64,000 nt of DNA from an uncultured Candidatus Saccharibacteria bacterium (GCA_964594415.1 CAZQLQ010000003.1:6224-70223); one strand, 5' to 3'; counted from the first letter of the stretch, positions 3,885-33,209 are shown. Notes: a model not told the origin generated them from the sequence alone. Numbers and translations: made by a program.

Positions 3885-3893
3885 TTCTTAACA

Positions 3894-4493: not shown

Positions 4494-4568
4494 GGCTGTG
4501 TAGCTCAGGGGTAGAGCAGCAGACTCATAAGCTGTTGGTCGGTGGTTCAAATCCACCCACAGCCACCA
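4494..4568 (+). tRNA. tRNA-Met (anticodon CAT), elongator type
   Basis: GGCTGTGTAGCTCAGGGGTAGAGCAGCAGACTCATAAGCTGTTGGTCGGTGGTTCAAATCCACCCACAGCCACCA. The acceptor stem pairs perfectly (so not an initiator) and it lacks the C4:G69/C5:G68 pairs of tRNA-Ile2. One A:G mismatch at 31:39. Confidence 0.75.
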
Positions 4569-4585
4569 AAATACATATAATAGGA

Positions 4586-4615
4586 AAACGGCTCTTTTAG
4601 AGCCGTTTTTCTTGT
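4586..4615. terminator. Bidirectional rho-independent terminator
   Basis: The hairpin aaaacggctc-tttta-gagccgtttt is flanked by A- and T-runs. It sits between the tRNA pair (+) and the convergent membrane-protein gene (-). Confidence 0.6.
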
Positions 4616-4628
4616 CCTTATTAACTTG

Positions 4629-11397: not shown

Positions 11398-11868
11398 TTA
11401 GACTTGTTTTTGAGCTTTTAGTTTTTCTTCTTCATGAATTTTAAACAATAAGTTTTTTGCTTCTGTGTAAGCAAGCAGAACATCTAGCGGTAAAAAGGTT
11501 ACTATTGCATCACGCCACTTGTCGTCATAAAAACTCTCCCCTGGTGTATAAAACCAATCTGCAAAACCCTCTGTTCTTATAAGGGCATCCGGATAGTACT
11601 TAACTACATAGCCGTCATAGATGTTTATAAACCTAGCTTCCTTTACGCCTCTTTCCCTTGAAATTTTAACAATTTCCAGAGCATACCTGATTAGTCCTTT
11701 CTCGCTAATGCAAATCGGTTTTTTGCCTTCTTCTCTTAAGGCGAAAAGAGCCATTAGCGCAACTTGATTTGAAAAAATAGTATAGTTGCCCAGGATTTCT
11801 GTTAAGTTCACTGACCAATCTGACAAACTCCAACACCTCCAATATGTTTTTATATATTTTATTGACAA
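11398..11868 (-). CDS. Hypothetical protein (156 aa), no recognisable domain
   Basis: ORF with a downstream terminator. No motif recognised. Confidence 0.45.
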   Translation of the reverse strand: MSIKYIKTYWRCWSLSDWSVNLTEILGNYTIFSNQVALMALFALREEGKKPICISEKGLIRYALEIVKISRERGVKEARFINIYDGYVVKYYPDALIRTEGFADWFYTPGESFYDDKWRDAIVTFLPLDVLLAYTEAKNLLFKIHEEEKLKAQKQV

Positions 11869-12354: not shown

Positions 12355-13710
12355 GTGAATAGTTTGATTACGAAATTTAAGGAAAATTTAAAGGTCTGCA
12401 ACATAAAAAATGGGCAGACTATTATTCTCGCTGTTTCTGGAGGAATTGACTCAGTCACAATGTTAGATCTATTTCTATCAGTGAAAAAAGATTATGCCCT
12501 TAAGTTAGTTGTCGCCCATCTAAATCACAGTGTCAGGGAAGATTCGGATACAGATGAGAGGTTTGTAAAAAGTCTGGCGAAAAAGAACAAACTTACTTTT
12601 GTCAGCAAGAAAATTAATCCTTCGAAAACAGGGAATCTAGAAGAGGAGCTAAGAAACGAAAGAAAAATATTTTTAAGCCAATGCGCCGAAAGCTTCAATG
12701 CCGACTACATTTCTTTGGCACATAACAAAAACGACCAGGCAGAAACATTCTTTCTCAACCTAATCCGTGGAAGTGGTCCTGCAGGCTTAAGCGCCATGAA
12801 TCTTACAGATGGAAAGAATATTCGTCCCCTGCTTAACATTTCCCGTGATGATATTAAAAATTATGCGGAAAAAAAGAAATTAGAATGGCACGAGGACAGC
12901 ACAAATAAAGATGTTCGCTACAGCCGTAATCTTCTTAGATTGAAGATATTACCCGAACTTGAAAAAATAAACCCAGAATGGCTTGAAAACATATTTCGGA
13001 CGGCACAGATTCAAAGAGAGATCGATGTTTTTATGAAAAAAGAGGCAGGAGAGATCATTAAAAATAAATCGACTCTCGATGTTAATCAGCTGAAAAAATT
13101 AGAGGATCCTCTACTCTTTGAGATTCTTGGGATATCTTATGAACGCAAAAAGGGCGACCGTAAAGAACTGTCACTGAAGAACTTGCAGGATTTGAAAAAT
13201 TTAATTCAGAAAACGGGCGGGACAAAGAAGTTAAATTTACCAAAAAATATTACGGCAGTAAGAAGCTATGCCAATCTTGATTTTTTGGCAAAAAAAGAGG
13301 ATAATAAAGAACCGGTGTTGCTACATTCAAAAGCTATTAAAATCGGAAAAACCGTATTCAACGATTGGGTAATTACTGCCAAAGTAGCTGCCAAATCAAC
13401 CACGCCAGATAAAGAAACAATATTTATCGAGCTCGATAGCTTGAAAGACATAGAAATCCGAACAAGAAAAAGCGGAGATAAAATAGTAATAGAAGGCGTT
13501 GGGACAAAAAAATTACAAGACATCTTCGTTGATTCAAAAGTAGATTTGAATAAACGTAAAATCTGGCCGGTTGTATATGATAGAAATGAAGATAAGATAA
13601 TCTGGATTCCAGGACTAGAATCAACTAGAAGATTACTGCCAGAAAAAAACAGAAATATTATCAAACTAACAGCAAAGGAAGTATTAGATGAAAAAGCAAA
13701 CAAAATATAA
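12355..13710 (+). CDS. tilS: tRNA(Ile)-lysidine synthetase TilS
   Basis: PP-loop SGGxDS motif (LAVSGGIDSVTMLDLF) with a C-terminal tRNA-binding extension. Apparent GTG start at 12355, preceded by an extended -10 (TGGTAAAAT at 12338..12346). Confidence 0.9.
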   Translation: MNSLITKFKENLKVCNIKNGQTIILAVSGGIDSVTMLDLFLSVKKDYALKLVVAHLNHSVREDSDTDERFVKSLAKKNKLTFVSKKINPSKTGNLEEELRNERKIFLSQCAESFNADYISLAHNKNDQAETFFLNLIRGSGPAGLSAMNLTDGKNIRPLLNISRDDIKNYAEKKKLEWHEDSTNKDVRYSRNLLRLKILPELEKINPEWLENIFRTAQIQREIDVFMKKEAGEIIKNKSTLDVNQLKKLEDPLLFEILGISYERKKGDRKELSLKNLQDLKNLIQKTGGTKKLNLPKNITAVRSYANLDFLAKKEDNKEPVLLHSKAIKIGKTVFNDWVITAKVAAKSTTPDKETIFIELDSLKDIEIRTRKSGDKIVIEGVGTKKLQDIFVDSKVDLNKRKIWPVVYDRNEDKIIWIPGLESTRRLLPEKNRNIIKLTAKEVLDEKANKI

Positions 13711-18974: not shown

Positions 18975-19150
18975 TTGTATCATCCTCGCACACGCGGGGA
19001 TCTACCTATATCTCTGCTTCGCCCAGCACTTTTTATAGTGCTGTGGTCATCCCGTCCGACGGCTCCGATGAGTTCGTGTCGGACTCCGTCGGAGAGCGAA
19101 GTCGAAGAATCTCATAATTTCAACCTCATTGACCTTGAGGTCTTTTTTTG
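18975..19150 (+). ncRNA. Candidate structured small RNA or tRNA-Asn leader (GC-rich, multiple hairpins, ends with a terminator)
   Basis: Local GC is well above the background. Nested inverted repeats (cagcact/agtgctg and gtccgacgg/ccgtcggag) end in the hairpin gacct-tga-ggtc plus T7 at about 19128..19150. No credible CDS is present; the track ORF here overlaps the tRNA. Confidence 0.25.
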
Positions 19151-19179
19151 CTATAATTTCATAGTTGAAAGCGTAATAT

Positions 19180-19254
19180 TCCCGGGTAGCTCAGTGGTAG
19201 AGCAGTTGGCTGTTAACCAATTGGTCGTCGGTTCGAATCCGACCCCGGGAGCCA
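19180..19254 (+). tRNA. tRNA-Asn (anticodon GTT)
   Basis: TCCCGGGTAGCTCAGTGGTAGAGCAGTTGGCTGTTAACCAATTGGTCGTCGGTTCGAATCCGACCCCGGGAGCCA. Preceded by the extended -10 TGCTATAAT at 19149..19157. CCA encoded. Confidence 0.85.
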
Positions 19255-19294
19255 TTAAAAGAGACGAGGTAAATGCCTGGTCTTTTTTCATTTC

Positions 19295-19346
19295 TGGTCG
19301 GATAAGAAGTTTATCCGCCCCAGGCGGAAATCCGACCCCGAGAGCC
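19295..19346 (+). repeat. Degenerate duplicate of the tRNA-Asn 3' half (integration-site-like remnant)
   Basis: TGGTCGG...AAATCCGACCCCGAGAGCCA repeats the variable-loop and acceptor 3' segment of tRNA-Asn (19 of 20 identical at the 3' end). A 27-nt insert replaces the T-loop. It does not fold as a tRNA. Confidence 0.6.
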
Positions 19347-19425
19347 AAAACAAATTAGTCTTTATCAAGCCTTTTTTTGTGTATTCCGATTCGTGAGCTA
19401 GAACGACTTGTGATAAGATTGTCTT

Positions 19426-19845
19426 ATGGAAAAAAAGAATACTAATGCACTGCAAAAATTATCAGTTTCAATAATAAACGTCTTTTTTGTTTTGCTTTTA
19501 TCGATCCCGTTTTACCTCATATACGGTTTTGGCAATGAGTATAAGATAGCGCTAGTCGTTATTTTTCTGGTTTACAATTTAGTCTTTATTTTTACTACAA
19601 AAAACAGATGCTTAGGGATGATTTTTCTCAATATTTACTGGAAGGAAGAATATCCATTTAAAAATCAAGTTATTTATGTGTTTTTATACACTCTCAGTTT
19701 CTCCACTGCTGTTATATGGATATTTTTCCCGTTTGACCTACTCTTAATAAACTTGCTTTTTATTCAATTTCCATTTGTCTTAAAGACAGGTACAACCGCT
19801 CACGGTTATTTTAGTGGTAAAATGTCTGGTTACAAGAAGGATTAA
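19426..19845 (+). CDS. Small polytopic membrane protein, hypothetical
   Basis: 139 aa with four hydrophobic helices and no clear family signature. Confidence 0.45.
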   Translation: MEKKNTNALQKLSVSIINVFFVLLLSIPFYLIYGFGNEYKIALVVIFLVYNLVFIFTTKNRCLGMIFLNIYWKEEYPFKNQVIYVFLYTLSFSTAVIWIFFPFDLLLINLLFIQFPFVLKTGTTAHGYFSGKMSGYKKD

Positions 19846-20026
19846 CCCAACAATTTCAAATCAGGAATATAAACATTTTCTTCCAATTTGACACAAATCG
19901 TTCTAGCATCATCCACCACCTGGAGCCATATAACAAGAGGTTTAACAAAGCCTTTTTTTATTTATAAAAATTATTAAATACTTCTGTTACGATCGAATTT
20001 TTTGAAAGTTATGAGATAATGAAGTC

Positions 20027-20386
20027 ATGGATGAAAGAGTTAAAAATTATATTGGAAGGCAGGACGAGCCTAAGAAGACTATCCTTAGAGAACTCAGGGA
20101 ATTACTGCTTAGTACGATTGACGACTGTAAGGAAGAATTCAATTGGGGTGTGCCTGTTTATGATGGCGGTAAATTTTATATTGCCGCCATGAGAGAACGA
20201 GTACATATCGGATTTGCGATTAAAGGACTATCTGACGAGGAAATAATGAACTTTGAAGGCAAAGGCAAAACCATGAGACACATAAAGATTTATACGGTAG
20301 AAGACATTGATAATAAAAATATTAAATACCTAATAAATCTTGTTCATGAAAAAGCCACAGTGCCACCTGACTATAAGAATCTTTAA
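20027..20386 (+). CDS. DUF1801 (YdhG-like) domain protein
   Basis: About 120 aa with the characteristic pattern (YIGRQDEP...GKFYIAAMRERVHIGF...RHIKI). Confidence 0.6.
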   Translation: MDERVKNYIGRQDEPKKTILRELRELLLSTIDDCKEEFNWGVPVYDGGKFYIAAMRERVHIGFAIKGLSDEEIMNFEGKGKTMRHIKIYTVEDIDNKNIKYLINLVHEKATVPPDYKNL

Positions 20387-20403
20387 TTAGTGAGTGTTTT
20401 AAT

Positions 20404-20571
20404 ATGAATATAGACGAAAAAATAGAGATAACCGTTGAAAAAACAATAGAAGCGCTTGCCAGAATAGAACGATTTGTTGTTAAATACGGATCTGAGCTTG
20501 AAGATGGTCAAAAAGAACGAATTGCTATGAAAGTTCAAGAACTACAAAATAAGATTAAGAATTTAAGTTAA
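20404..20571 (+). CDS. Unannotated 55-aa coiled-coil ORF (MNIDEKIEITVEKTIEALARIERFVVKYGSELEDGQKERIAMKVQELQNKIKNLS)
   Basis: The ORF is below the track size cutoff. It fills the gap between the DUF1801 and S51 peptidase genes. No strong SD. Confidence 0.25.
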   Translation: MNIDEKIEITVEKTIEALARIERFVVKYGSELEDGQKERIAMKVQELQNKIKNLS

Positions 20572-20676
20572 GTATTTTAAGCTCGTTTCACCAAATAAGC
20601 AAAAAAGATTGCGGCCTTTAAGTCGTTTTTTTTATTTTTTACATTTAAAATAAGCGACTTGTGCTAAAATTACTTT

Positions 20677-21303
20677 ATGAAATTATTCTTATCTTCAATC
20701 GGTTTTGATGAAAATGTCGCCAAAGAGTTAGATGAACTTATATCTAAAAAGCGAGTTGATGTTTCCATTGGAATTATCACCAATGCTAAGAAGTATAAAT
20801 CAAAGGAAGAATTCAAAGAATCGATAACGAGAAATACAAAATATGTCGCTGATTTAGGTTATTCAAAGATTCGCTATATTGATTTAGATAATTACGGAGA
20901 CAAAGATTTAGAATGCGATGTTTTGTATATTTTTGGAGGAAACTCTTTTTACCTTCTGGAAGCAATTAAAAGAAGCGGTTTTGATAAGGCTCTAAAGAGA
21001 ATCGTGGATGAGGGTAGAATAATTGTTGGACAAAGTGCTGGTAGTATTATTTTTTCACCAAGTATTGAAATTGCTGGCAATGATTTTTGCTATGATCAAA
21101 ATATCTTGGGATTAAAAGACTTAGACGCACTTAATATAGTGGATTATGCAATTCTCCCACATTATGAAGATAAATATGTAGCGGGCGTTAGAAAACTTCG
21201 CGAAACTGTTGGTTATGACATTTACGCCTTAAAAGACGGGCAAACAATTTTCTTAAACGGTAACGAAACCACTTATTTGGGCGGGGAACCTGCTATCTTT
21301 TAA
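20677..21303 (+). CDS. Peptidase S51 family (dipeptidase E / cyanophycinase-like) paralog 1
   Basis: GGNSFYLLEAIKRSG and GQSAGSII (Ser nucleophile in the SAGS context) match Peptidase_S51. Confidence 0.7.
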   Translation: MKLFLSSIGFDENVAKELDELISKKRVDVSIGIITNAKKYKSKEEFKESITRNTKYVADLGYSKIRYIDLDNYGDKDLECDVLYIFGGNSFYLLEAIKRSGFDKALKRIVDEGRIIVGQSAGSIIFSPSIEIAGNDFCYDQNILGLKDLDALNIVDYAILPHYEDKYVAGVRKLRETVGYDIYALKDGQTIFLNGNETTYLGGEPAIF

Positions 21304-21323
21304 TGCCTAAGTTCTAAGATCAT

Positions 21324-21395
21324 TCCACCAAGCGATGCAAATAGAACAGTCTTAACAAAGCCTTTTTTTGATGTCTAAAAAAATTAACCTCTATC
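21324..21395 (+). repeat. Repeated intergenic module (terminator hairpin plus downstream promoter-like segment), copy 1
   Basis: ccaccaagcgatgcaaatagaacagtcttaacaaagcctttttttgatgtctaaaaaaattaacctctatcg. Nearly identical to 22084..22155, with a partial copy at 19939..19962. Confidence 0.7.
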
Positions 21396-21427
21396 GGAAT
21401 TAGAACTTTTGAGTTAAAATTTGGTCT

Positions 21428-22069
21428 ATGAAGATCCTCCTAACATCTAGCGGAATAGATAGGGCTGTTTACGCTAAAATAAGACGCTTACTTGGTAATA
21501 GAGCAGACATTTCGGTTGGCTTTCTGAAATCGTCTATAAAATATATGAACAATCAGCCAGCCTTGGAAAATAGACTTAGCGAAATTTCTAATAATTTGTT
21601 ATCTTTGGGATTTAAAAAAGCTGATGGTTATTATCTACCAAAATATACAGCAGGACACTTGGCAGTAGCATTAGATAAATATGATGTGATTTATATATGC
21701 GGTGGGAACACCTTTAATCTCTTAAATGTCATTAAAATCGCTGGTTTTGAAAAAGTTTTGGACGACCTCAAGGATAAAAAGATTATCGTTAGTGAAAGTG
21801 CTGGAAGTTATGTTTTGTGCCCAAACATAGAAATGGCAAACTGGAAGGGGTCAAACAGCAACGAGGTTGGTATAGATGACTTAACGGGTTTAAATTATGT
21901 TCCCTTTCTAGTGTCGGCTCACTACTCGGATGAAGTTGCTGGAAAAATTAAAGTTGGTGCAAAGAAATCGGGACTAACGACTTATGCACTTAGAGATGGA
22001 CAGGCAGTCTTTTATCAGGATGGGAATTTAGAATATTTGGGTGGTGAGCCCAAGGTTATTAAGGCTTAG
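21428..22069 (+). CDS. Peptidase S51 family paralog 2
   Basis: GGNTFNLLNVIKIAG and SESAGSYV. A tandem paralog of the preceding gene, with the intergenic region duplicated along with it. Confidence 0.7.
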   Translation: MKILLTSSGIDRAVYAKIRRLLGNRADISVGFLKSSIKYMNNQPALENRLSEISNNLLSLGFKKADGYYLPKYTAGHLAVALDKYDVIYICGGNTFNLLNVIKIAGFEKVLDDLKDKKIIVSESAGSYVLCPNIEMANWKGSNSNEVGIDDLTGLNYVPFLVSAHYSDEVAGKIKVGAKKSGLTTYALRDGQAVFYQDGNLEYLGGEPKVIKA

Positions 22070-22083
22070 TGTTCTTAACTCAG

Positions 22084-22155
22084 CCCGCCAAGAGAGGCAA
22101 ATAGAACAGGCTTAACAAAGCCTTTTTTGATGTCTAAAAACCTTAACCCCTATCG
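22084..22155 (+). repeat. Repeated intergenic module, copy 2
   Basis: ccgccaagagaggcaaatagaacaggcttaacaaagccttttttgatgtctaaaaaccttaacccctatcg. The hairpin ggctt-aaca-aagcc plus a T-run acts as a terminator. Confidence 0.7.
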
Positions 22156-22185
22156 TACTTAAAAATTTTACGATAGAATTAATTT

Positions 22186-22596
22186 ATGAAAATATTTATT
22201 ATCTGCAGTAAAAATTTTTATGATAAAATCTCGTCTATTAAATCCGAGCTAGAAAAAGCAGGACATATCATATCTCTTCCAAATTGCTTTGACGACCCAG
22301 GCACCGAAGACAGATATAGAAACCTTGGTTCAAAAGAACACACAGAATGGAAGTCCAAAATGCTAAAACATAGTACCGGTGTTATCGAGCATAATGACGC
22401 CGTTTTGGTGCTCAATTTTGAGAAAAACGGGATAGAAAACTATATTGGCGGGGCAACATTTCTAGAAATGTATGATGCCTTTCGACTTGATAAAAAAATA
22501 TTTTTATACAATGACATTCCGAATGGAATACTACATGACGAAATAATAGGTTTTGACCCAGTTCTAATCAATCAAAATCTGGCGAAGATCATTTAA
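22186..22596 (+). CDS. Nucleoside 2-deoxyribosyltransferase / DNPH1 (Rcl)-like protein (putative nucleotide N-glycosidase fold)
   Basis: 136 aa starting MKIFIICSKNF, with DAVLVLNFEKNG...IGGATFLEMYDAF...KKIF resembling the xGxGyElG catalytic-Glu motif of the N-deoxyribosyltransferase/DNPH1 superfamily. Confidence 0.4.
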   Translation: MKIFIICSKNFYDKISSIKSELEKAGHIISLPNCFDDPGTEDRYRNLGSKEHTEWKSKMLKHSTGVIEHNDAVLVLNFEKNGIENYIGGATFLEMYDAFRLDKKIFLYNDIPNGILHDEIIGFDPVLINQNLAKII

Positions 22597-22608
22597 TTTC
22601 ATCCACAT

Positions 22609-22635
22609 AAAAGACCTTATTTGGTCTTTTTTTAT
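22609..22635 (+). terminator. Rho-independent terminator
   Basis: aaagacc-ttattt-ggtcttt followed by a T-run, downstream of the DNPH1-like gene. Confidence 0.6.
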
Positions 22636-22670
22636 ATCCCGATAAAAGAGATAATATATCTTGAGGGAAT

Positions 22671-24362
22671 ATGAAGGAAAAAGAGAGAAAGCCCAACAAT
22701 AAAAATAAAAGCAAAAAGAAACCTTCATCACATAAGACTGTCTTTTCATTTCTGAATTTAGGTTTTATTTTCCATCTTGTTAAGTCTTACCACAAATACA
22801 AAAAATATTTTTTTCTTGGCATAGCAAACATTTTGTTTATTGTAGTAGTTGCAGTAATTGTGTTTTGGGGAAAACCAATATTGTGGTTTGTCAAGAGCTC
22901 ATCTTACCAGAACATAACATATCCTTATGCATCTGTTTTAGGAAATAATGTTGGTGGACTAAATTCAGAAGAGCTTGATACTAAATTAGCAGAGATAAAA
23001 TTAGAATTTGAAAGTAAAAAAGTTACATTCACTAATAATGAAAGCCAATGGATATTTACTTACAACGAACTGGGGGTTAGATTTGATAGTGATGTGACCA
23101 AACAAGCAATTTTGGAATTTAATAAATACAATATAAGAAACAAGTACAAACTAATTATTGGCGACATTAGTCCTCAGGTTATACCGTCAATATCAATCAT
23201 TAACGATAAATGCGTTAATTCTCTTTCAACCGTATCAATTCCTGAAACTGCGCCTCAAAATGCCGCCATATACTTTGACCAAGAGTTAAAAATAAAATCT
23301 GAACAATCCGGCACAAGTTATAATCCAGCTTCAAACTGTAAAGAACTATCAACTATTTTAGCTTCAAGCCGTACTAAAGCAAAAATTAGTCTAGACACCG
23401 TCGCTGCCAACTTAACCAAGGCCGACCTTGAACCGGTGCTGCCTCAGATTCAAGGCATCACTGGAAAACCGTTAACTTTATATAGTGGGTCTTACAAAAG
23501 AATTTTGCCATCAGAACAGTTGCTAGGCCTGCTAGAAATCTCTAAAAGCGACTCCGGGATCCAGGTTGGCTGGTCTTCAGCAAGGCTCGATGAACTTATT
23601 AATGGAATAGCATCAAAGGTGAATTACAGTAATAGTAGCCCGGTAGTTGGAAGTTGTGAATATTTGATTAGTAACGGCGGATACTGGTTGGACAAAGCTG
23701 CTACAAAGAAATTTATACAGAGCCTTGGCCCAAACAGCTCTCGATCCTACACTCTACCAGTTATTTATCATGAAGCCGTCATTGGTAAACGTTCGCCGGT
23801 GAAAAGCGGCACTCGAGGTACTGTTTATTTAACATTTGACGACGGTTTATTGTATGGTAATCAAATTATGAATTATGCTGCTTGTTACGGCATAAAAATT
23901 ACTTTCTTTGAAATTGGTTCTAGAGGCTTTACTGATGCCGTAGCTCTCCGCAGAGCCGTTAATGAAGGCCATGCTGTTCAATCACATGGATATGATCACG
24001 CTGCGACTAACTATGGCGAACACAGCTATGAATGGCAATTTAATGATATTAAAAAATCAATTGATACAATTATAAGCATCACGGGCATTCGGCCAACATA
24101 TTTTCGCCCACCTGGTGGAAATAGAAGTACTGACACATACACAGCTGCAAATAACAACGGGCTCAAATTGATACTGTGGGGTGCTTCTTCTGCAGATACA
24201 GCTGGAATCAGCTCAAGCGCAATTTGCTCTAATGTTTTGAATCATGCTTTTTCGGGGGCTAGTGTTTTAATGCATTCAACAAAACAAACTACTGCCAACG
24301 CAGTGCCATGCATTATTGAAGGACTGGCCGCAAGAGGTTACAGTATGCAAGCTTTAAGATAA
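22671..24362 (+). CDS. Polysaccharide deacetylase (NodB domain) with an N-terminal TM anchor and a large uncharacterised N-terminal domain
   Basis: NodB motifs TFDDG, HAVQSHGYDH and YFRPPGG in the C-terminal 200 aa. N-terminal Lys-rich tail plus a TM helix. Confidence 0.75.
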   Translation: MKEKERKPNNKNKSKKKPSSHKTVFSFLNLGFIFHLVKSYHKYKKYFFLGIANILFIVVVAVIVFWGKPILWFVKSSSYQNITYPYASVLGNNVGGLNSEELDTKLAEIKLEFESKKVTFTNNESQWIFTYNELGVRFDSDVTKQAILEFNKYNIRNKYKLIIGDISPQVIPSISIINDKCVNSLSTVSIPETAPQNAAIYFDQELKIKSEQSGTSYNPASNCKELSTILASSRTKAKISLDTVAANLTKADLEPVLPQIQGITGKPLTLYSGSYKRILPSEQLLGLLEISKSDSGIQVGWSSARLDELINGIASKVNYSNSSPVVGSCEYLISNGGYWLDKAATKKFIQSLGPNSSRSYTLPVIYHEAVIGKRSPVKSGTRGTVYLTFDDGLLYGNQIMNYAACYGIKITFFEIGSRGFTDAVALRRAVNEGHAVQSHGYDHAATNYGEHSYEWQFNDIKKSIDTIISITGIRPTYFRPPGGNRSTDTYTAANNNGLKLILWGASSADTAGISSSAICSNVLNHAFSGASVLMHSTKQTTANAVPCIIEGLAARGYSMQALR

Positions 24363-24372
24363 AAAATAATTA

Positions 24373-25317
24373 ATGGTAAGAATAATGAATAATATTAGCA
24401 GTCATTTTAAAAATACAATATCAAAAAGAGTATGGATATTATTAGCAGTATTCATAATAATATTAATTTCGACTTCGGTCTTTTTATTTTCTAAAATAAG
24501 CAAACAACAACCGCATCAAACGACTACTACGACATCTTTAACAACAGTCACCTCAAGCACTACTATCACCACAACAACGACAACCACTACTACAACAACA
24601 AGTACGTCCACGACTAAGGCTCCCTCAACTACTACAACTACTAAATTTAACGTGATGAACCTAAATAACAACGTAGTAAATTGGAGCTATGCATACCCAT
24701 CAAGCTTCATAACCAAATACAATGGTTATTGGAATTTTGGTGACAACAATCTATATCTAACGTTTGATTGTGGCTATGATTACAACAATCTTGCTTCTAG
24801 TATCATGGATATCTTGGAGACCAAAAACGTAAAAGCAGTATTCTTCGTAACGGGTGCTTTTATGAATTCAAGGCCTGATCTGATAAACAGGATGATTGCC
24901 GAAGGACATATCGTAGGAAATCACTCGTATGGCCACTTGAATCAACCACAAAACTTAACTTCCTCCACGGACACAGTTATTGCCGATATTAAAGCCTGGG
25001 AAAATAAATATTTTGCTATAACGGGAACATCTCCTTACAAACATTTATTCCGCCCTCCGGCCGGAGCTATTTCCGAGCGCTCGATGGCCCTAATGAATCA
25101 ACTTGGCTACAAAAGCTTACTTTGGGCAGTTGCATACAGGGATTGGGATCCCGCAAATCAACCTACTGAGGCAGAAGCATGGACAGCATTACGTAACTAT
25201 ACGTCGGCAGGTGATATTATTCTTCTTCACGGAACCTCACAAACAAGCACAAATATTTTAAGTGCCTATATAGACGAATATCGATCTAAAGGTTATGAGT
25301 TTAGACTACCGAATTAA
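24373..25317 (+). CDS. Polysaccharide deacetylase (NodB domain) with a poly-Thr linker
   Basis: TM helix, then TTTTTSLTTVTSSTTITTTTTTTTTTTSTSTTKAPSTTTTT, then the NodB motifs (TFDCGYD, HIVGNHSYGH, FRPPAG). Confidence 0.75.
   Translation: MVRIMNNISSHFKNTISKRVWILLAVFIIILISTSVFLFSKISKQQPHQTTTTTSLTTVTSSTTITTTTTTTTTTTSTSTTKAPSTTTTTKFNVMNLNNNVVNWSYAYPSSFITKYNGYWNFGDNNLYLTFDCGYDYNNLASSIMDILETKNVKAVFFVTGAFMNSRPDLINRMIAEGHIVGNHSYGHLNQPQNLTSSTDTVIADIKAWENKYFAITGTSPYKHLFRPPAGAISERSMALMNQLGYKSLLWAVAYRDWDPANQPTEAEAWTALRNYTSAGDIILLHGTSQTSTNILSAYIDEYRSKGYEFRLPN
24514..24652 (+). repeat. Low-complexity ACT/ACA-rich coding repeat encoding the poly-Thr linker
   Basis: Runs of actact/acaaca codons inside the second deacetylase gene. 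Confidence 0.7.
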
Positions 25318-25391
25318 TAAAGTAATTCACATTTCAATTTATCTTGAATTTATACTATTATTGATATTGTTAGTAAGCTTACGGAGTTTTT

Positions 25392-26165
25392 TTGCTTTAT
25401 TCCATATACGAAATTATCTGGATATTCATAGTTTATTCTTTTTTTGGTTGGTGCTTAGAAGTGGTGAACGCAACAATCAGGACAGGGAAATTTGTAAACA
25501 GAGGCTTTTTAAATGGCCCCTACTGCCCAATTTACGGATTTGGCACAGTTATTATTCTAGAGGCCTTAAATCCTTACAAAAGCAACTTGTTTTTAGTCTT
25601 CGTCGGGTCAATATTATTGACTACCGTTCTCGAATTTATAACAGGCTATATCCTTGAAAGAGTCTTTGACCAAAAATGGTGGGACTATTCGCGCGATCAC
25701 TTTAATCTTAAGGGATACGTTTGTTTAGAAAACTCGGTTATTTGGGGAATCGCATCAATTTTTGTAATATTTATTCTCCACCCAATCATTAATAGCTTTA
25801 TAACCTGGTTGCCAAAAAATATTGGAACAATTCTCCTCATTGTAGTGCTTGAAATTATGATTATAGACTTTGCTATAACTCTTGTTTCGCTTTTAAAAAT
25901 TAAAAAAAGGCTAAATGTCCTTGTGGAAACAGGAGAGAAAATAAGAATACTTTCAGACGCAATAGGGAAGAACATCTCAGGCAAAACTCTCTCGGGTCTC
26001 AAGAAAAGAAAAAAGTATGAGATAGAGTTGAGAGAATTAAAAAAGAATTATCAGGAACTTCTAGAAGAAAAAGTATTTATACAAAAAAGAATTGTTAAGG
26101 CTTTTCCAAGCTTGAACTCGCTTTGGGCGAAAAGACTTAAAGGGCTAGTTAAAAATAAAAAATAG
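25392..26165 (+). CDS. DUF1113 / CmpB-like integral membrane protein with a C-terminal coiled-coil tail
   Basis: FFGWCLEVVNATIRTGKFVNRGFLNGPYCPIYGFG is the characteristic DUF1113 (putative ABC-transporter type IV) signature. The C-terminal KRKKYEIELRELKKNYQELLEE segment is coiled-coil. Confidence 0.55.
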   Translation: MLYSIYEIIWIFIVYSFFGWCLEVVNATIRTGKFVNRGFLNGPYCPIYGFGTVIILEALNPYKSNLFLVFVGSILLTTVLEFITGYILERVFDQKWWDYSRDHFNLKGYVCLENSVIWGIASIFVIFILHPIINSFITWLPKNIGTILLIVVLEIMIIDFAITLVSLLKIKKRLNVLVETGEKIRILSDAIGKNISGKTLSGLKKRKKYEIELRELKKNYQELLEEKVFIQKRIVKAFPSLNSLWAKRLKGLVKNKK

Positions 26166-26204
26166 ATTAATAGATATTATTATTTGCCAGCAGCTTCAAT
26201 AATT

Positions 26205-26420
26205 TTAGATATATTCGCCAATAATTGGTGCTGTATTAAAAAATGTAAGTAAATAAACCAAAAGCACTGCCAATATCGTTCCACCAATGAAAAATCCTAA
26301 TCCGCTTATAATACCACGATAAAAAGTCCACCATACAGATGCATTTTTAGTAACTGCTTGCTCCAACTTATCTATAGAACCCTTCAGTCCTAATAGCTCT
26401 TTCATATGAAAATTATACAC
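26205..26420 (-). CDS. Small membrane protein, hypothetical
   Basis: 71-aa ORF with a C-terminal TM helix. Located downstream of the atp operon on the same strand. Confidence 0.35.
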   Translation of the reverse strand: MYNFHMKELLGLKGSIDKLEQAVTKNASVWWTFYRGIISGLGFFIGGTILAVLLVYLLTFFNTAPIIGEYI

Positions 26421-26450: not shown

Positions 26451-26873
26451 TCAAGAAGTCACTATTTCAGTAAGTTTTTTTATGCTCCAATCAAAATCGC
26501 TATTCTTTTCTAACCAAAGGCCAATAACGCTAACTCCCTTAGGAACTCCCCAATCGTTGGCAATCAATTCACACGATTCGTTAAGCTCAGAGATTTGAGC
26601 TTCATCGGAAATCGGATTTTTCGCACAATCTTGATGTGCGATTACTACTACATTAGTTGAACTATGACCGCTTACTGATATACTGACCTCTTCCTTAAGA
26701 TTTTCTACAACTTCCTTGACACCTTTAGTTATCACATTGGTTGGACCCGCAACATTGACAGCGTCAACAAATTCAACACACAGTTCTTTTTTTATCCAGT
26801 CGCTTACTGGTTTTTGAGTTCTTCCATCGATACAATTAATCATTGTTGCAAAATGTAAATTACTATGAGACAT
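26451..26873 (-). CDS. Small beta-carbonic-anhydrase-like protein (CxDxR ... HxxC zinc motif), putative
   Basis: NCIDGRTQ and AHQDCA match the two beta-CA zinc-ligand motifs. Only 140 aa. It starts 8 nt after the atpC stop, so it is likely co-transcribed with the atp operon. Confidence 0.35.
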   Translation of the reverse strand: MSHSNLHFATMINCIDGRTQKPVSDWIKKELCVEFVDAVNVAGPTNVITKGVKEVVENLKEEVSISVSGHSSTNVVVIAHQDCAKNPISDEAQISELNESCELIANDWGVPKGVSVIGLWLEKNSDFDWSIKKLTEIVTS

Positions 26874-26881
26874 ATTTCTCC

Positions 26882-27336
26882 TTAATCATTTAATTCTCTT
26901 GCTTTTTGTCCGTGCTTTCTTTTGATCCCAGAGTGCTTAGTAATTGCTTTGAGCTGAGCTGCAATGCGTATAAGCTCTGCTTCTGATTCTGCGAACAACT
27001 CCTTGTTGGCAATTGCTTCTGCCAAAGCCTTTTCTGCAGCTTTCTTGGCCCCAAGTACTTCTGCCTCATTAAGTTCATGGATATGCTCTGCAGCATCCGC
27101 AAGCACGATCACTTTACTTCCTTCTTTTATATGCACGAAACCTCCATAAAGAAGAGCAATTCTCTCATCATCCTTTGACCTTACGATAATCTCTCCTGGA
27201 CTAATTTCGGCAACAAGAGGAACATGGTTTGGTAGCACCGTAATTTGTCCTGTTTTAACAGGTAAAATCACCTCTTTGACCTCTTCTTCAAACAAGGTTC
27301 TCTCAGGGGTTATGACTGACAAATAAAGTTTAGACA

Positions 27337-27337
<1 letters not shown>
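26882..27337 (-). CDS. atpC: F1Fo ATP synthase epsilon subunit
   Basis: Epsilon beta-sandwich N-terminus (LSVITPERTLFEEEVKEVILPVKTGQITVLPNHVPLV) plus the helical C-terminus. Confidence 0.9.
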
Positions 27338-29530
<2,193 letters not shown>

Positions 29531-31039
29531 TTATTTGTCTCCACTCTTTTTGCTTACTTTTTCAAGACTCTTTATGAGTGCCTTCTCAACTTCTTCAGAA
29601 ATATCTAAATCTCGCTTGAAAGCCGTTAAATAGTCTTTGTTCCCATTTAATTCATTCAGTAAATTTTCTTCAAATCCTCTAATGTCCTTGACTTCGATCT
29701 CATCCAGATACCCATTCGTTGCCGCATAGAGAATGGCAACCTGGCCCTCTACGGCCATCGGTTGATACTGGTCCTGCTTTAAGACCTCAACAATTCTTTT
29801 ACCGCGTTCGATTTGTTTTTTGGTTTCTTCATCAAGGTCAGAAGCAAATTGAGCAAACGACTGTAGTTCACGATATTGTGCAAGTTCAAGCCGTATCTTT
29901 CCTGCAACTTTTTTAATAGCTTTTATCTGAGCCGATGAACCTACACGAGAAACCGATAATCCAACATTTAAAGCAGGACGAATGCCCTGATAAAATAGAT
30001 CTGATTCAAGGTATATCTGACCATCCGTAATAGAAATTACGTTTGTAGGAATATAGGCAGACACATCGCCAGCTTGTGTTTCTATTATTGGCAACGCGGT
30101 AATGGAACCACCACCATACTTCTCATCTCTCCTGCAAGCACGCTCAAGAAGTCTTGAATGAAGGTAGAAAACATCACCAGGATATGCTTCTCTTCCCGGT
30201 GGACGCCTAAGCAGAAGTGAGATTTCTCTATAAGCCCAAGCGTGTTTGGACAGATCGTCATAGATGACTAGCACATCTTTACCTTGATCCATAAAATATT
30301 CTGCAATTGCGACTCCTGCATAAGGAGCTATAAAAAGAGAAGGCGCAGAATCAGAGGCGGAAGCATTTACTACTATAGTGTTTGCCATAGCCCCATTTTC
30401 TTCAAGCTTTGATACTATCCTAGCAACCTTTGAATTCTTTTGGCCAATTGCTACATAAACACAAATTACACCCGTGTCTTTTTGATTAATGATCGTGTCA
30501 ATTGCAATTGCGGTTTTTCCCGTTTGACGGTCCCCAATAATCAGCTCTCTTTGTCCACGACCAATCGGGATTGCCGCGTCGATCGCCTTAATCCCTGTTT
30601 GAAGTGGGACGTTTACTGATTTACGCTCGATAACGCCAGGCGCAATTCTTTCGACGGGGTAAGCCTTATTGCTTGTTATACTACTCTTACCATCTATAAC
30701 GTTTCCGAGTGCGTCTACTACGCGTCCAATTATATTATCTGAAACCGGAATCTCTAAGATTCTACCGGTACAGCGAACTTCGTCACCTTCCTTAATCCTC
30801 TTTGAATCTCCAATAATAACAATTCCTACATTATCTTCTTCGAGATTAAAAGCAATGCCATAAATACCGTTTTCAAACTGGACCATTTCAAAAGACATCG
30901 CATCGTGTAGGCCAATAGCCTTAGCAACGCCGTCACCAACAGTTACAACCTTTCCTATCTTGTAAGAACTTGCTGATGGTTTATAGCTTTTGAGTTGTTC
31001 TTCAATTTTTTGTAATAAAATGTCTCTATTTTCCTGCAT
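29531..31039 (-). CDS. atpA: F1Fo ATP synthase alpha subunit
   Basis: Walker A GDRQTGKT; 502 aa. Confidence 0.95.
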
Positions 31040-31041
31040 AA

Positions 31042-31437
31042 TTATACCTCTACACCCATTTTTGTCTGTTTAATAAGATCCGTAAGCTGGCTAACCCTAT
31101 TCCTTAAACTATTGTCTATAACCGTTTCACCCATTCTTATTATTACTCCGCCTAAAAGATCCTCGTTTATGAAATAAGTAATTTCCAGCTTCTGATTGGA
31201 TTTTTTTTCTAAAACTCTTTCTATTAGACTTTTTTGCTCATTTGATAATTCACATGCACTTGTGACTGTGATATATCCTTCTTTAAATTGCTTTTCTAGG
31301 GATAGCCTTTTTACCAGTGATTCTGCTTTTCTTGGATATCTTTGTACAACCCTCTTAGCAAAACGCTCAACAAGTTTTGGGTCCTCGTCCTCTGCAACTA
31401 GTTTCAATATTTTCGAGATATCTAAATTTATCGCCAT
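31042..31437 (-). CDS. atpH: F1Fo ATP synthase delta subunit (short, 131 aa)
   Basis: Position between atpF and atpA, with OSCP/delta-like helices. Shorter than the typical 175-180 aa. Confidence 0.75.
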
Positions 31438-31439
31438 AT

Positions 31440-31943
31440 TTACGCTTTCTCAATAAACCCTGCCAACGCTTCATTTATCAAGGCGTCGTCATATTTCTTG
31501 GTGTTACTTTTAAGCAAAGAGATTAGGGATTCTTCAACTAGTTTGGCAATATCATCCTTAGTGTCATTTATGATTTCTTTTTTCTTTTTTGCGCCTTCTA
31601 TTTCCGCGTTTTGAAGAATTGCTTTTGCATTTGTTTCGGCTTCAAACTTAGCGTTTTCGTTTATCAACTTAGCCTCTACCCTCGCTTCATCAATAATTTT
31701 TGAGGCTTCCGTCTTGGCACTTAAGATGACTTCCTCTTTTTTCTTTTCTATCTCGTCATATTCTCTAGCTATCTCGTCTGCCTTCTTCAAGCTCTCTTCA
31801 ATCTTTGAAGTCCGCGCATCCAAGACGTTCATCACAGGCTTATACAAAAATTTCCAAAGAATCAAGAGAAGCAAGCCGAAGTTCAATCCCTGCGCAATCA
31901 GAGATGCCGTATCTATACCTAATTTTTCAAATATAGCTCCCAT
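31440..31943 (-). CDS. atpF: F1Fo ATP synthase subunit b
   Basis: Single N-terminal TM helix followed by a long charged helix. Confidence 0.85.
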   Translation of the reverse strand: MGAIFEKLGIDTASLIAQGLNFGLLLLILWKFLYKPVMNVLDARTSKIEESLKKADEIAREYDEIEKKKEEVILSAKTEASKIIDEARVEAKLINENAKFEAETNAKAILQNAEIEGAKKKKEIINDTKDDIAKLVEESLISLLKSNTKKYDDALINEALAGFIEKA

Positions 31944-31951
31944 ACGAGCTC

Positions 31952-32197
<246 letters not shown>

Positions 32198-32214
32198 TTA
32201 CTTAACTTAATATA

Positions 32215-32961
32215 CTAATGTGCATCATGTGACATAGTGGCCATCGAAAAGAATACGAGTGCCAGCATCGTAAACACAAGCGCTTGGATAAAACCTACAA
32301 AAATCTCCATAATATAGAATGGCACCGGAATGATGTATGGCGTGATTACTCCCAAAACAACCAGTAATACTTCGCCTGCAAATACGTTACCAAAAAGCCT
32401 GAATGCAAATGAGATAATACGAGTAATTTCTGAGACTAACTCTAGGATACCGACAAAAAAGTTAACGGGACTAGAAAAATTTAAAAATTTCTTACCGTAC
32501 TTAAACATGCCGATAGCGGCTATCCCAAGGACCTGGGAGGCAAAAACCACAATAACCCCAAGAGCTACAGTAGTATTTAGATCAGCTGTCCCAGCACGAA
32601 AAATAGGAACTAAGACTTCTTTACCCTCAGAGTTCAGTTCATAAACTCCTATCGATCCAACCCCCGGAATTAAACCGAACCAATTATTGAAAAGTATAAA
32701 GATGAAAAAGGTCGCAATCATCGGAAATATTTTTCGAGCAAATGTCTTGTCTCTTATAATGCTATTCGTAAGATTAAATAACATCTCAATCCCAAGCTCC
32801 ATCACATTTTGTAGCCCCCTCGGGATAAGATTAATCTTCCTGGTTGCAGAAAAAGAAATCAACGAAAGAAAGACCAAAACCACAAACGTCGTAAACATGC
32901 TATTTGTAATCGTAACGGATCCTATTTCCATAAGTGGATTGGCGGTAATAGAAACATGCAT
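32215..32961 (-). CDS. atpB: F1Fo ATP synthase subunit a
   Basis: Subunit-a signature with the essential Arg (RLFGNVFAGE) and five TM helices. Confidence 0.9.
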   Translation of the reverse strand: MHVSITANPLMEIGSVTITNSMFTTFVVLVFLSLISFSATRKINLIPRGLQNVMELGIEMLFNLTNSIIRDKTFARKIFPMIATFFIFILFNNWFGLIPGVGSIGVYELNSEGKEVLVPIFRAGTADLNTTVALGVIVVFASQVLGIAAIGMFKYGKKFLNFSSPVNFFVGILELVSEITRIISFAFRLFGNVFAGEVLLVVLGVITPYIIPVPFYIMEIFVGFIQALVFTMLALVFFSMATMSHDAH

Positions 32962-33209
32962 TATTCACCATCCTTCATTTTGTCGATTGATTTTTTGATA
33001 CCATAAAAAGAAGTAATTAATGATAAGCCTATACCGGAAAAAAGAAAGATATGTCCCGCACTAAATCGCTTGTCTAGCCAAACTCCTAAAACTACAAAAA
33101 ATACTAATGGCAAGCTTATCCGAAAGCCAATTTCTAAAAAGTATCCGTATACATTAAAATCTTTTTTCATACTCAAAATCCTAAATTTTTCAATACAAAA
33201 ATGCGTCAC
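32961..33209 (-). CDS. AtpZ/AtpI-like small membrane protein preceding atpB
   Basis: 82 aa with two TM helices in the usual atpI/atpZ position. The start may be the internal MKKDF. Confidence 0.55.
   Translation of the reverse strand: MTHFCIEKFRILSMKKDFNVYGYFLEIGFRISLPLVFFVVLGVWLDKRFSAGHIFLFSGIGLSLITSFYGIKKSIDKMKDGE

Follow-up and report, generated by a model that had tools for sequence, protein, structure and literature searches.

Saccharibacteria and other Patescibacteria have tiny genomes and depend on a host, and to our knowledge few mobile elements have been recognised in them and the exchange of their accessory genes is poorly known. In islands formed by tyrosine integrases, the block of identity between attL and attR is the segment of the tRNA from the T-loop to CCA, and in integrons the attC sites are imperfect palindromes of 57-141 nt with R'' and R' cores. 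The tycheposons of Prochlorococcus are tRNA-seeded islands in which elements stand in tandem and partial tRNAs lie scattered (bioRxiv 10.1101/2020.12.28.424599). The large serine integrase attP/attB systems compared here are those of A118/LI, Bxb1 and phiC31 (Rutherford et al. 2013, PMC3783163), and in serine-integrase attB sites the distance of the ZD motif from the centre is 5 bp shorter than in attP sites (PMC3783163). We analysed a 64-kb stretch of DNA, hereafter the window, in which an earlier note had described a tRNA-Asn gene followed by a partial copy of its own 3' end and had taken the region from 19.2 to 26.2 kb for a likely decayed island or an excision scar. Our results point to a hotspot of cassette capture, in a Saccharibacteria-like genome, and away from one decayed 7-kb island.

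The tRNA-Asn(GTT) gene itself is intact and without an intron (19180-19254, plus strand, 74.5 bits; ARAGORN and Rfam), and the distance from its GTTC to CCA is 24 nt. It is preceded by a promoter-like site on the same strand at 19129-19157 (TTGACC-17-TATAAT, 11/12 matches, TG-extended), whose "ttgctataat" context is also found upstream of tRNA-Asn in relatives. A hairpin with a T-run, terminator A (19257-19288, plus strand), lies between the tRNA and the duplicate and separates the latter from the tRNA-Asn transcript; the 3' part of this terminator, CTGGTCTTTTTTCATTTCTGG, is identical at 21/21 positions to the sequence after tRNA-Asn in the related locus L171. In relatives, tRNA-Asn is targeted by group I introns, a GIY-YIG gene and serine recombinases, and for annotation it should be kept in mind that the intron-split tRNA-Asn genes of this lineage are missed by tRNA finders.

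The flagged duplicate, here called c2 or the type I copy (19295-19347, plus strand), begins with TGGTCGG at 19295, exactly 41 nt past tRNA-Asn, as had been described. It continues with a 27-nt insert, ATAAGAAGTTTATCCGCCCCAGGCGGA (19302-19328), and ends with AATCCGACCCCGAGAGCCA (19329-19347), which matches the tRNA-Asn end at 18/19 positions, or 18/20 over 20 nt and not the 19/20 first reported. When up to 3 mismatches were allowed, this 19-mer matched only the tRNA-Asn end and c2 in the 64 kb; two such matches have a chance expectation of 0.01 and were given by 0/100 shuffles, which rules out a chance match for c2. No comparable 3' copy was found beside the other tRNAs of the window, nor a 5' acceptor strand (TCTCGGG) near c2, and neither ARAGORN nor Rfam recognises c2 as a tRNA, both giving only 19180-19254. 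It is without the distal GTTC motif at both 24 and 29 nt, and its right flank is a degenerate copy of a second terminator, terminator B (AGTCTTTATCAAGCCTTTTTTTG, 19357-19380, plus strand). The insert, which the earlier note described as replacing the T-loop, recurs in conserved form in two further genera (L168-170, and c4 of L171), and c2 is thus not a freely decaying scar. A type I copy with the same insert directly follows tRNA-Asn in all three genera (window, L168-170 and L171). Counted against a reading of the repeats as an array of insertion relics, the conservation of the insert in L168 and L171 hints at a function or element that such a reading does not capture. The earlier note would be contradicted by the same duplicate at the same position in relatives, and in part this is what is seen: 2 of about 9 related lineages have the copy, each with different genes downstream.

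Three more degenerate motifs resembling the tRNA-Asn 3' end lie on the same strand, each of 29 nt. The first, c3 (GTTCTAGCATCATCCACCACCTGGAGCCA, 19900-19928, from GTTC to CCA), is of the form that we call type II, or P-type, and is followed by terminator B (AGGTTTAACAAAGCCTTTTTTT, 19938-19959, plus strand). In c4 (GTTCTAAGATCATTCCACCAAGCGATGCA, 21311-21339, plus strand) the type II motif is degenerate and is followed by terminator B (21348-21369) and a promoter-like module, TTAACCTCTATCGGAATTAGAACTTTTGAGTTAAAAT, up to an ATG (together 21348-21427, plus strand). The equally classified c5 (GTTCTTAACTCAGCCCGCCAAGAGAGGCA, 22071-22099, plus strand) is closest to c2 of the related locus L001; its terminator B (22108-22128) and promoter-like module reach the ATG of ORF136 (together 22108-22185, plus strand) and form the array's last repeat unit. 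All units from c2 to c5 thus consist of a tRNA-Asn-3'-like segment and a copy of one terminator on the plus strand, those of c4 and c5 have the promoter-like module as well, and together they partition single genes or small gene blocks. Terminator B has 4 copies in the window, all on the plus strand and within 19360-22128, and a unit profile search of the window returned c1-c5 only. The earlier suggestion of looking for a third copy was therefore rewarded by three degenerate ones, with none at the proposed boundary at 26.2 kb; indeed, neither the 19-mer nor the unit-profile search found a further copy downstream of 22133 in the window. A genome-wide REP-like repeat is ruled out for the window because all copies lie within 3 kb.

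The degenerate copies differ in how they are tied to the family. For c3, the local score of the tRNA part alone is 19, which is within noise (mean 14.5, sd 4.8), and its significance comes from the inclusion of the terminator and from a profile built on the metagenomic array L173 alone, which matches 19899-19965 with E=1.6e-7 in 2.6 Mb. The cores of c4 and c5 are degenerate (GATGCA and GAGGCA) and are linked to the family through c3 and L001 only; about 80% of the c4 unit can be aligned to the region 3' of tRNA-Asn in L001, with a score of 104 (background 16.7, sd 5.4). A 16-nt inverted repeat (pair I2, 15/16) surrounds ORF139, with its left arm at 19397-19412 containing GCTAGAAC, the inverse of GTTCTAGC at 19900, and its right arm at 19892-19907 overlapping the start of c3.

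The genes between the repeats are small and all on the plus strand. Cassette gene 1 (ORF139, 19426-19845) encodes a predicted membrane protein of 139 aa that matches no family. Block 2 (20027-21303), which has no type II motif inside, holds a DUF1801/DUF5655 gene (20027-20386), a possible 55-aa ORF (20404-20571) and S51 peptidase 1 (20677-21303). The presence of three ORFs and a different terminator in the interval from c3 to c4 counts against a reading of the repeats as relics of cassette insertion. Cassette gene 3 is S51 peptidase 2 (21428-22069), which is rare in databases (34 matches at E<=1e-10, best 62%). The two S51 peptidases are 35% identical whereas the units downstream of them are about 80% identical, and the units are therefore not a by-product of recent gene duplication. 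Past the array, the stretch 22186-26420 holds ORF136, two NodB deacetylases, a PF06541/DUF1113 gene and a small minus-strand ORF, with no repeats bounding it. Pfam agrees with the earlier naming of DUF1801, the two S51 peptidases, the two NodB deacetylases and DUF1113 (PF06541), while a "DNPH1-like" gene at 22186-22596 was not reproduced in Pfam, NCBIfam or PDB sequence searches. In the window and in L161, DUF1801 genes adjoin tRNA-Asn, and no alignment of the two proteins was possible, so this adjacency is not orthology.

The partition by repeats stops at about 22185 and not at 26200. The genes from 19426 to 26420 have no homologue in the lepA neighbourhoods of relatives that were searched, where the flanking genes do have homologues, and to this extent they are accessory as first proposed. 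The large NodB deacetylase (22671-24362) has about 80 full-length homologues with 47-57% identity, some of them from named Saccharibacteria, and is an ordinary lineage gene and not island cargo. Codon usage is ordinary, and so is GC3, which runs from 0.27 to 0.36 in the stretch where the window averages 0.328 (sd 0.04); this rules out the compositional island signal that had been suggested as a check. Moreover, a copy only 41 nt past the tRNA cannot bound a 7-kb stretch beyond it. Thus, c2 can be kept as a member of an att-like family at the tRNA-Asn 3' end, whereas the single island and its limits cannot. About 39 of the window's 67 candidate ORFs were scanned with Pfam; none of them has a recombinase or integrase domain, and the statement that no integrase remains holds for those ORFs only. 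For annotation, it follows that where part of a tRNA is found copied, several small insertions and not one island may have taken place.

The closest relatives in the collections searched have LepA identities of at most 81%, a metagenome scan with LepA found no relative above 60%, and an exact LepA look-up gave no match. At such distances, non-coding DNA that can still be aligned must have been constrained or transferred. A single tRNA end without a copy is present at five other tRNA-Asn loci (L161, L163/L164, L165, L166 and L167), as expected of the empty sites proposed earlier. L001 has no type I copy; past the first gene downstream of its tRNA it has a degenerate copy of another kind, in the order tRNA-Asn, unit, DUF1653 gene, type II motif, terminator and hemerythrin. 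In L166 the order is tRNA-Asn, terminator and hemerythrin, and the two loci form a natural pair of an empty site (L166) and a filled one (L001).

In metagenomic arrays, the type II motif (GTTCTAACATCGACCACGACCCGGAGCCA and terminator) follows almost every gene. L173, with 13 copies in 9.26 kb, has a motif behind nearly all of its same-strand genes and carries an integron-like cargo of S51, HAD, NTPase, RelB and hydrolases; L174-176 have 3 to 6 copies. The distance from GTTC to CCA was 29 nt in every type II copy measured, as against 24 nt in the tRNA; the sample comprises c3 and c5 (by script), c4 and c3 of L171 (by hand), c2 of L001, 10 of the 13 L173 copies and 2 L174 copies. This is the shift of +5 bp that distinguishes attP from attB of large serine integrases, and the enzyme class is likely to be a serine and not a tyrosine integrase. 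Large serine recombinase genes (Resolvase, Recombinase and Zn_ribbon_recom) do adjoin the tRNA-Asn 3' end in L167, L172 and L180. That of L172 lies with Zot and Rep in an inovirus-like prophage; a 78%-identical recombinase is found at tRNA-Trp with the same AGAGAGACG arm, and one 89% identical is encoded by a related phage contig, L178. Homology between L178 and L172, the integrated form, starts exactly at GGAGCCA, and the non-tRNA left arm of L178 has GTTCT at the 29-nt position; L178 thus has an attP-like site with a GGAGCCA core. That short common core of phage and host forms is seen in these relatives and not in the window. The right arms are terminators of varying sequence, in which the TTAGAGC candidates found on our own inspection give inconsistent centres. 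A second att end was not found in the prophage loci L167, L172 and L180; viral contigs gave no match to the c2 19-mer, its insert or the type II motif, and GenBank phages and plasmids gave none to an L173 unit.

The explanation that we favor, with somewhat more confidence than doubt, is that small cassettes were inserted site-specifically, time after time, at or beside the tRNA-Asn 3' end and left c2 to c5 as a short array of relic attachment sites; the enzyme was most likely a large serine recombinase that acted in trans or has since been lost. The tRNA-Asn end would be a B-type left half-site, with its distal GTTCGAA motif 24 nt from the CCA end, and the type II motifs would be P-type left half-sites, with that motif 29 nt from the end. 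Each insertion would displace older cassettes away from tRNA-Asn, and such successive outward displacement fits the gradient of identity away from the tRNA, from 18/19 in c2 through 14/18 in c3 to c4 and c5. As c2 keeps the tRNA-identical proximal 19 nt together with a cassette-type right flank, it resembles the platform-side junction of the first cassette, perhaps located at a secondary docking site that is tRNA-like and conserved. Products of the attL type are not recombined by canonical serine integrases, and tandem accretion of this kind is therefore outside textbook chemistry. Also against this explanation are the scanned window ORFs without a recombinase, the prophage loci without a second att end, the c2 copy without GTTC at either spacing, the degenerate cores of c4 and c5, and the searches of viral contigs, phages and plasmids that gave no match. 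Only tentatively, and with doubt outweighing confidence, we extend this to Saccharibacteria at large, which could possess an integron-like capture platform of different chemistry. A large serine recombinase would insert small cassettes, each with a promoter-like module, a terminator and a tRNA-derived 29-nt P-type half-site, at the tRNA-Asn 3' end or a docking copy; arrays would reach at least 12 cassettes, and the window would hold a short array without recombinase, with c2 as the docking-site junction.

A dedicated recombinase may not be needed if circularised fragments of relatives' DNA, bearing the tRNA-Asn end and terminator, integrate by a single homologous crossover of the Campbell type and duplicate the segment each time. 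Saccharibacteria take up DNA, ComEC is encoded in the window at 326-1768, the window ORFs scanned include no recombinase, and the units are about 80% identical over about 120 nt to the L001 region 3' of tRNA-Asn, including the terminator and promoter module. However, these homology segments are short and diverged, and crossovers of this kind leave unexplained both the 29-nt spacing of the phage attP-like site and why the distal copies share a derived 29-nt form instead of the true 24-nt end. We consider this route unlikely.

It is also rather improbable that the duplicate is a functional tRNA-like element, as an RNA or a protein-binding site, for example one that mimics the T-arm and acceptor in transcript processing or termination or serves as a decoy for tRNA-targeting integrases or homing endonucleases, sparing the essential single-copy tRNA-Asn. 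The attacks on tRNA-Asn in relatives noted above would suit such an element, as would the persistence of the type I copy and its insert in three genera despite saturated divergence, and the window copy folds better than its shuffles (z=-3.7). Nevertheless, the L168 and L171 copies fold no better than shuffles (z=+0.7, +0.6 and -1.1), which together with the empty Rfam search rejects a conserved structured RNA for the type I copy. A 5' acceptor partner is missing, the element is undetected by ARAGORN, a terminator stands between it and the tRNA transcript, and most relatives are without it.

We give little credence to local duplication and decay, in which slippage or unequal crossing-over produced tandem tRNA-Asn genes, or repeats of the tRNA end and terminator, that later drifted after losing their 5' halves, with no mobile DNA involved. 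The copies are indeed direct, local and on one strand, identity does fall with distance from tRNA-Asn, and a weak 5'-half-like stretch precedes c3 (19800-19819, 15/20 to tRNA-Asn). But repeats that arise by chance match as well as this 15/20 stretch does, by which, together with the tRNA-only score of c3 within noise, a full decayed tRNA at 19800-19928 is ruled out. Unrelated genes lie between the copies, shared derived insertions are not expected from independent decay, and the same derived motif recurs in unrelated gene contexts of other genera and in 13-copy arrays.

A classical integron remnant (CALIN), whose units would be attC sites served by an IntI tyrosine recombinase encoded elsewhere, is very improbable: the same-orientation array of small unrelated genes with a conserved site after each, the toxin-antitoxin and hydrolase cargo of L173 and the inverted 8-mers GTTCTAAC and GTTAGAAC, which in a few units resemble R'' and R', are set against an inverted partner (<=2 mismatches, plausible position) in only about 3 of 19 units examined (L173 #1294, c4 of the window and c1 of L001), which rules out canonical attC architecture, a conserved 29-nt part that is not palindromic, promoter-like modules of the cassettes' own, and no IntI in the window ORFs scanned or in the Pfam hits of called genes and seven scanned ORFs of L173-L176.

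If the array of insertion relics anchored at tRNA-Asn is real, it would be a concrete route of gene flux with an integron-like layout and different enzymology. It would also predict natural pairs of serine-integrase sites, with the tRNA-Asn end as attB and the 29-nt motif and the L178 site as attP, which could become genetic tools for organisms that have almost none at present.

Islands of tyrosine integrases resemble the locus in that the block copied in c2 is exactly the 19-mer from the T-loop to CCA and lies 3' of an intact tRNA. Unlike in those islands, the two copies are only 74 nt apart, no integrase was found in the scanned window ORFs, and 5' of the block there is a conserved insert flanked by tRNA-like sequence (ATTGGTCGTCGG in L168). 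As in large serine integrase systems, an enzyme with Resolvase, Recombinase and Zn-ribbon domains is found at the site in relatives, a short core (GGAGCCA) is shared, the P-type distal motif lies 5 bp further out and the integrase ORF reads across attP. Those systems, however, give one prophage with attL and attR and not arrays of P-type sites; here the scanned window ORFs contain no such enzyme, no consistent inverted motif was seen in the right half on inspection, and c2 matches neither the B nor the P spacing. With integrons and CALINs the locus shares the dense packing of small accessory genes on one strand, unrelated to one another and with a toxin-antitoxin component among them, a conserved element like a recombination site after each gene, and a logic in which the newest cassette is proximal. 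It differs from them in sites that are not attC-type imperfect palindromes, in a platform that is a tRNA gene end and not attI beside intI, in cassettes that seem to carry their own promoter and terminator, and in an enzyme that is probably of the serine and not the tyrosine class. The likeness to tycheposons lies in an intact tRNA followed by partial 3' copies, remnants without integrases, older DNA displaced outward by successive insertions, the use of large serine recombinases by some tycheposons, and a streamlined host genome with few other mobile elements. Unlike tycheposons, which are multi-kb units with replication modules, the present units measure 0.4-1.3 kb and consist of one gene each, the distal copies share a derived 29-nt motif and are not decayed true tRNA ends, a terminator stands at every site, and the host phylum is Saccharibacteria. 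The locus is therefore a variant of the tRNA-seeded islands with an integron-like layout, and one that we hold to be new.

The units downstream of the tRNA-Asn gene lead us to favor, with some reserve, an origin as relics of serial site-specific insertion, in which small cassettes would have been placed one after another at the end of tRNA-Asn. The enzyme would most likely have been a serine recombinase that acted in trans or that the window no longer encodes. The earlier note had proposed an integrase att footprint in a decayed island; att-like relics do lie at the tRNA-Asn end, but they point to serial small insertions and end at 22.19 kb. Of the accessory stretch that it placed at 19180-26200, the genes at 19426-26420 lack homologues near lepA in the related loci searched, where homologues of the flanking genes do occur; the att-like units partition only 19.25-22.19 kb. 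DUF1801, two S51 peptidases, two NodB deacetylases and PF06541 were recovered, the "DNPH1-like" gene was not reproduced, and codon usage, a proposed point of comparison, is ordinary, as is GC3. In line with the note's remark that no integrase remains, no integrase, transposase or resolvase domain was found in the approximately 39 of 67 candidate window ORFs scanned.

A set of Saccharibacteria-type MAGs shares the upstream TilS-FtsH-MurJ-LepA block and the ATP synthase operon (26451-33209, - strand), and the lepA-to-atp interval is different in every relative and inverted in some. LepA of the window is 76-81% identical to that of those MAGs, and the collections searched held none closer, the window's own protein aside. 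At such identity neutral DNA should not align, so shared non-coding sequence is informative. The NodB homologues carry the names Candidatus Saccharibacteria or Saccharimonadales, and the NodB protein of 563 aa has about 80 full-length homologues (47-57% identity) in other gene contexts. The orientation of the ATP synthase operon with respect to lepA varies, with an inversion in some relatives only (- in the window and L162, + in L001, L166 and L168), the tRNA-Asn strand varies between genomes, and the surroundings of tRNA-Asn are a breakpoint of rearrangement in these relatives. Elsewhere in the window, local GC falls to 0.25-0.30 at 47001-49000 (about 0.37 window-wide), over ORFs 47518-48066 and 48324-48770, which have no family match. 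ComEC is encoded in the window; Campbell-type homologous insertion following DNA uptake would be another route for the units, one that we consider rather unlikely.

The tRNA-Asn(GTT) gene is intact and intron-free (19180-19254, + strand; ARAGORN and Rfam), with a strong promoter-like site (11/12 matches) at 19129-19157 and terminator A, a hairpin with a T-run, directly 3' of it (19257-19288). Between lepA and this promoter, 18975-19122 is GC-rich and strongly structured, with neither an Rfam match nor a counterpart in relatives; the 267-nt spacer, whose end is a terminator-like hairpin (19123-19141), has a folding z of -4.9 relative to shuffles. The partial duplicate c2 begins with TGGTCGG at 19295, 41 nt past the tRNA as first reported, followed by a 27-nt insert (19302-19328) and a terminal 19 nt (AATCCGACCCCGAGAGCCA, 19329-19347). 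These 19 nt match the tRNA-Asn end at 18 positions, and over 20 nt the count is 18/20, not the 19/20 previously given. With up to 3 mismatches allowed, the 19-mer has two matches in 64 kb, the tRNA-Asn end and c2 (0.01 expected), and no partial copies of the window's other tRNAs were found. No detector, ARAGORN and Rfam included, called c2 a tRNA.

The c2 insert is not random, since related "type I" copies exist elsewhere. In L168-L170 the copy lies 23 nt after tRNA-Asn and consists of ATTGGTCGTCGG, GAAGTTTATCCGCCTCTGGAGGG and AATCCGACCCCGGGAGCCA in succession; in L171 it follows a terminator A identical to that of the window at 21/21 positions (CTGGTCTTTTTTCATTTCTGG), and a longer form with terminus ATAAATATCCGCCTCTGGTGGATCCCTGGAGCCA is also present. 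Five other tRNA-Asn loci have no type I copy. Better folding than in shuffles is seen for the window copy alone, which gives no support to a conserved RNA structure; a tRNA-like functional element or decoy is in our judgement an unlikely account of these copies. In L168, 4201-4259 (-), about 95 nt downstream of tRNA-Met (4354-4426), is a weak partial tRNA by Rfam (32 bits) and may be a further partial copy like those beside tRNA-Asn.

The third copy of the tRNA end that had been worth seeking turned out to be several degenerate ones, first hinted at by a repeat scan at 19911. The region 3' of tRNA-Asn in the related locus L001 served as query, and its terminator alone (AGGCTTAATAAAGCCTTTTTTT) gave four window matches with scores of 46, 45, 44 and 31, against a background of 14.1 (sd 2.9) and a next best match of 24. 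The four matches share the + strand and lie at 19.3-22.2 kb, and the alignment places a tRNA-Asn-3'-like segment just before each. Besides c2, these segments are c3 (19900-19928, +, GTTCTAGCATCATCCACCACCTGGAGCCA), c4 (21311-21339, +, GTTCTAAGATCATTCCACCAAGCGATGCA) and c5 (22071-22099, +, GTTCTTAACTCAGCCCGCCAAGAGAGGCA); in c4 and c5 a promoter-like module continues up to the next ATG. Whole units scored 104 and 84 against L001 (background 16.7, sd 5.4), and a profile search found no additional copies in the window. The units separate ORF139, a block of DUF1801, a small ORF and S51-1, then S51-2, then ORF136. The S51-1 and S51-2 proteins are 35% identical and the units downstream of them about 80%, so the units are not the leftover of a recent tandem gene duplication. 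ORF139 is surrounded by a 16-nt inverted repeat (15/16; 19397-19412 and 19892-19907) whose outer 8-mers, GCTAGAAC and GTTCTAGC, are inverse and direct forms of the type II distal motif, and TTAGAAC-like boxes occur in the promoter-like modules of c4, L001 c1 and L173 #1294.

The same motif is found in relatives. L001, in which the type I copy is absent and a type II copy present, has the order tRNA-Asn, DUF1653 gene, second degenerate copy (GTTCTAAACTCAGCCCACCAAGCGAGCCA), terminator, hemerythrin gene; L166 has tRNA-Asn, a similar terminator and hemerythrin. To judge from this order, the two are a natural filled/empty pair. Homologues of S51-2 are scarce (34 matches, best 62% identity), and their contigs are arrays (L173-L176). 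L173, of 9.26 kb, holds 13 copies of GGTTCTAACATCGACCACGACCCGGAGCCA with a spacer, a GAGGC..GCCTC hairpin and a T-run, and nearly all its same-strand genes, including inositol phosphatase, NTPase, HAD, S51, serine hydrolase and RelB, have one copy 3' of them; L174-L176 have 3 to 6. A profile built from L173 only matches window c3 with E=1.6e-7 in 2.6 Mb of DNA searched and finds nothing in 160 unrelated LepA loci. All distal copies share a T for G in the T-loop and indels of +2, -1 and +4 nt relative to the true tRNA end. Thus, they represent one kind of site that has been propagated (type II) rather than tRNA ends decayed independently; duplication in place followed by decay appears quite improbable.

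Cassette insertion by a serine recombinase is suggested by the spacing of these sites. The distance from GTTC to terminal CCA is 24 nt in tRNA-Asn and exactly 29 nt in all type II copies measured, namely c3 and c5 (by script) and c4 (by hand count) in the window, L001 c2, L171 c3 (by hand), 10 of the 13 L173 copies and 2 L174 copies. According to structural and mutational work on serine integrases, in attB half-sites the distal zinc-ribbon-domain motif lies 5 bp nearer the centre than it does in those of attP (PMC3783163). Taken with this rule, the two spacings indicate that, for one and the same recombinase family, the tRNA end acts as a left half-site of B type and the type II motif as one of P type. 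No consistent motif emerged from the right half-sites.

Moreover, large serine recombinases are found at tRNA-Asn. In L167 the end of a Resolvase, Recombinase and Zn-ribbon gene is approximately 100 nt away from the 3' end of tRNA-Asn. L172, an inovirus-like prophage (Zot, Rep protein, LexA-like protein), is the sole viral contig that contains the exact tRNA-Asn end, and its serine recombinase ORF of 551 aa runs antisense across the tRNA-Asn 3' exon, an arrangement repeated in L180. An enzyme 78% identical lies at tRNA-Trp in L179, with the same AGAGAGACG arm past GCCA. The L178 recombinase is 89% identical to that of L172, and DNA homology between the two starts exactly at GGAGCCA; to its left L178 has AGTTCTGAAAATATATAATTCGT, which is not tRNA sequence, and the recombinase ORF C-terminus differs to match. 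The L178 site has the form expected of attP, with its core at the extreme tRNA end. Its GTTC-to-CCA distance is also 29 nt, and we estimate the chance probability of GTTCT at this one predefined position at near 0.001. In L162 a 517-aa serine recombinase ORF (3177-4762), with small phage-like ORFs upstream, is convergent with tRNA-Met and overlaps its 3' end (4687-4762), so a second tRNA is seemingly a serine-integrase site in these relatives. Window positions 19260-19269, just past tRNA-Asn (AGAGACGAGG), match the phage-derived arm of L172 (66-75, AGAGACGAAG) at 9/10 with a 3-nt offset, of borderline significance; terminator A itself could derive from the phage arm.

In c2 the proximal 19 nt are kept as in the tRNA but GTTC is absent at both 24 and 29 nt, and the right flank is a decayed terminator B of cassette type. 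Hence c2 is probably the junction at which the first cassette meets the platform, its left part B-like and its right arm of cassette type, possibly seated on a conserved tRNA-like docking copy. It must be taken into account that cassette insertion has weak points: c2 has neither spacing, the window ORFs scanned encode no enzyme, and, to our knowledge, tandem arrays do not result from serine-integrase chemistry as described in textbooks.

In several relatives a group I intron of about 0.5 kb follows U35 in the anticodon loop of tRNA-Asn(GTT) and splits the gene (L001 13302-13895, -; L171 11822-12407, +; L167 13106-13677, +; L172 1-63; L180 about 11591-11660, -). Rfam Intron_gpI scores are 85.6 bits for L001 and 87.3 bits for L171, and the L001 intron contains an ORF whose CxxCH motif is HNH-like; ARAGORN reported no tRNA at the split loci. 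In L169 and L170, tRNA-Asn has a free-standing GIY-YIG endonuclease gene 10 nt upstream of it (12685-12990, -; Pfam E=1e-13). GC-rich hairpins follow this gene, which is uncalled in the near-identical L168.

Full-text searches of the literature on integron/attC or serine recombinases in Saccharibacteria/Patescibacteria found no description of such arrays, and the tRNA-Asn cassette array would be a variant of tRNA-seeded islands not found described for these groups. Integron arrays are similar in layout, but R''/R'-like inverted 8-mers occur in just about 3 of 19 units, which weakens this reading and leaves a classical integron remnant very improbable. In geometry the sites agree with serine-integrase att sites, and the closest concept is that of the Prochlorococcus tycheposons (bioRxiv 10.1101/2020.12.28.424599), in which a tRNA-seeded island carries tandem elements parted by partial tRNAs, with scattered remnants.
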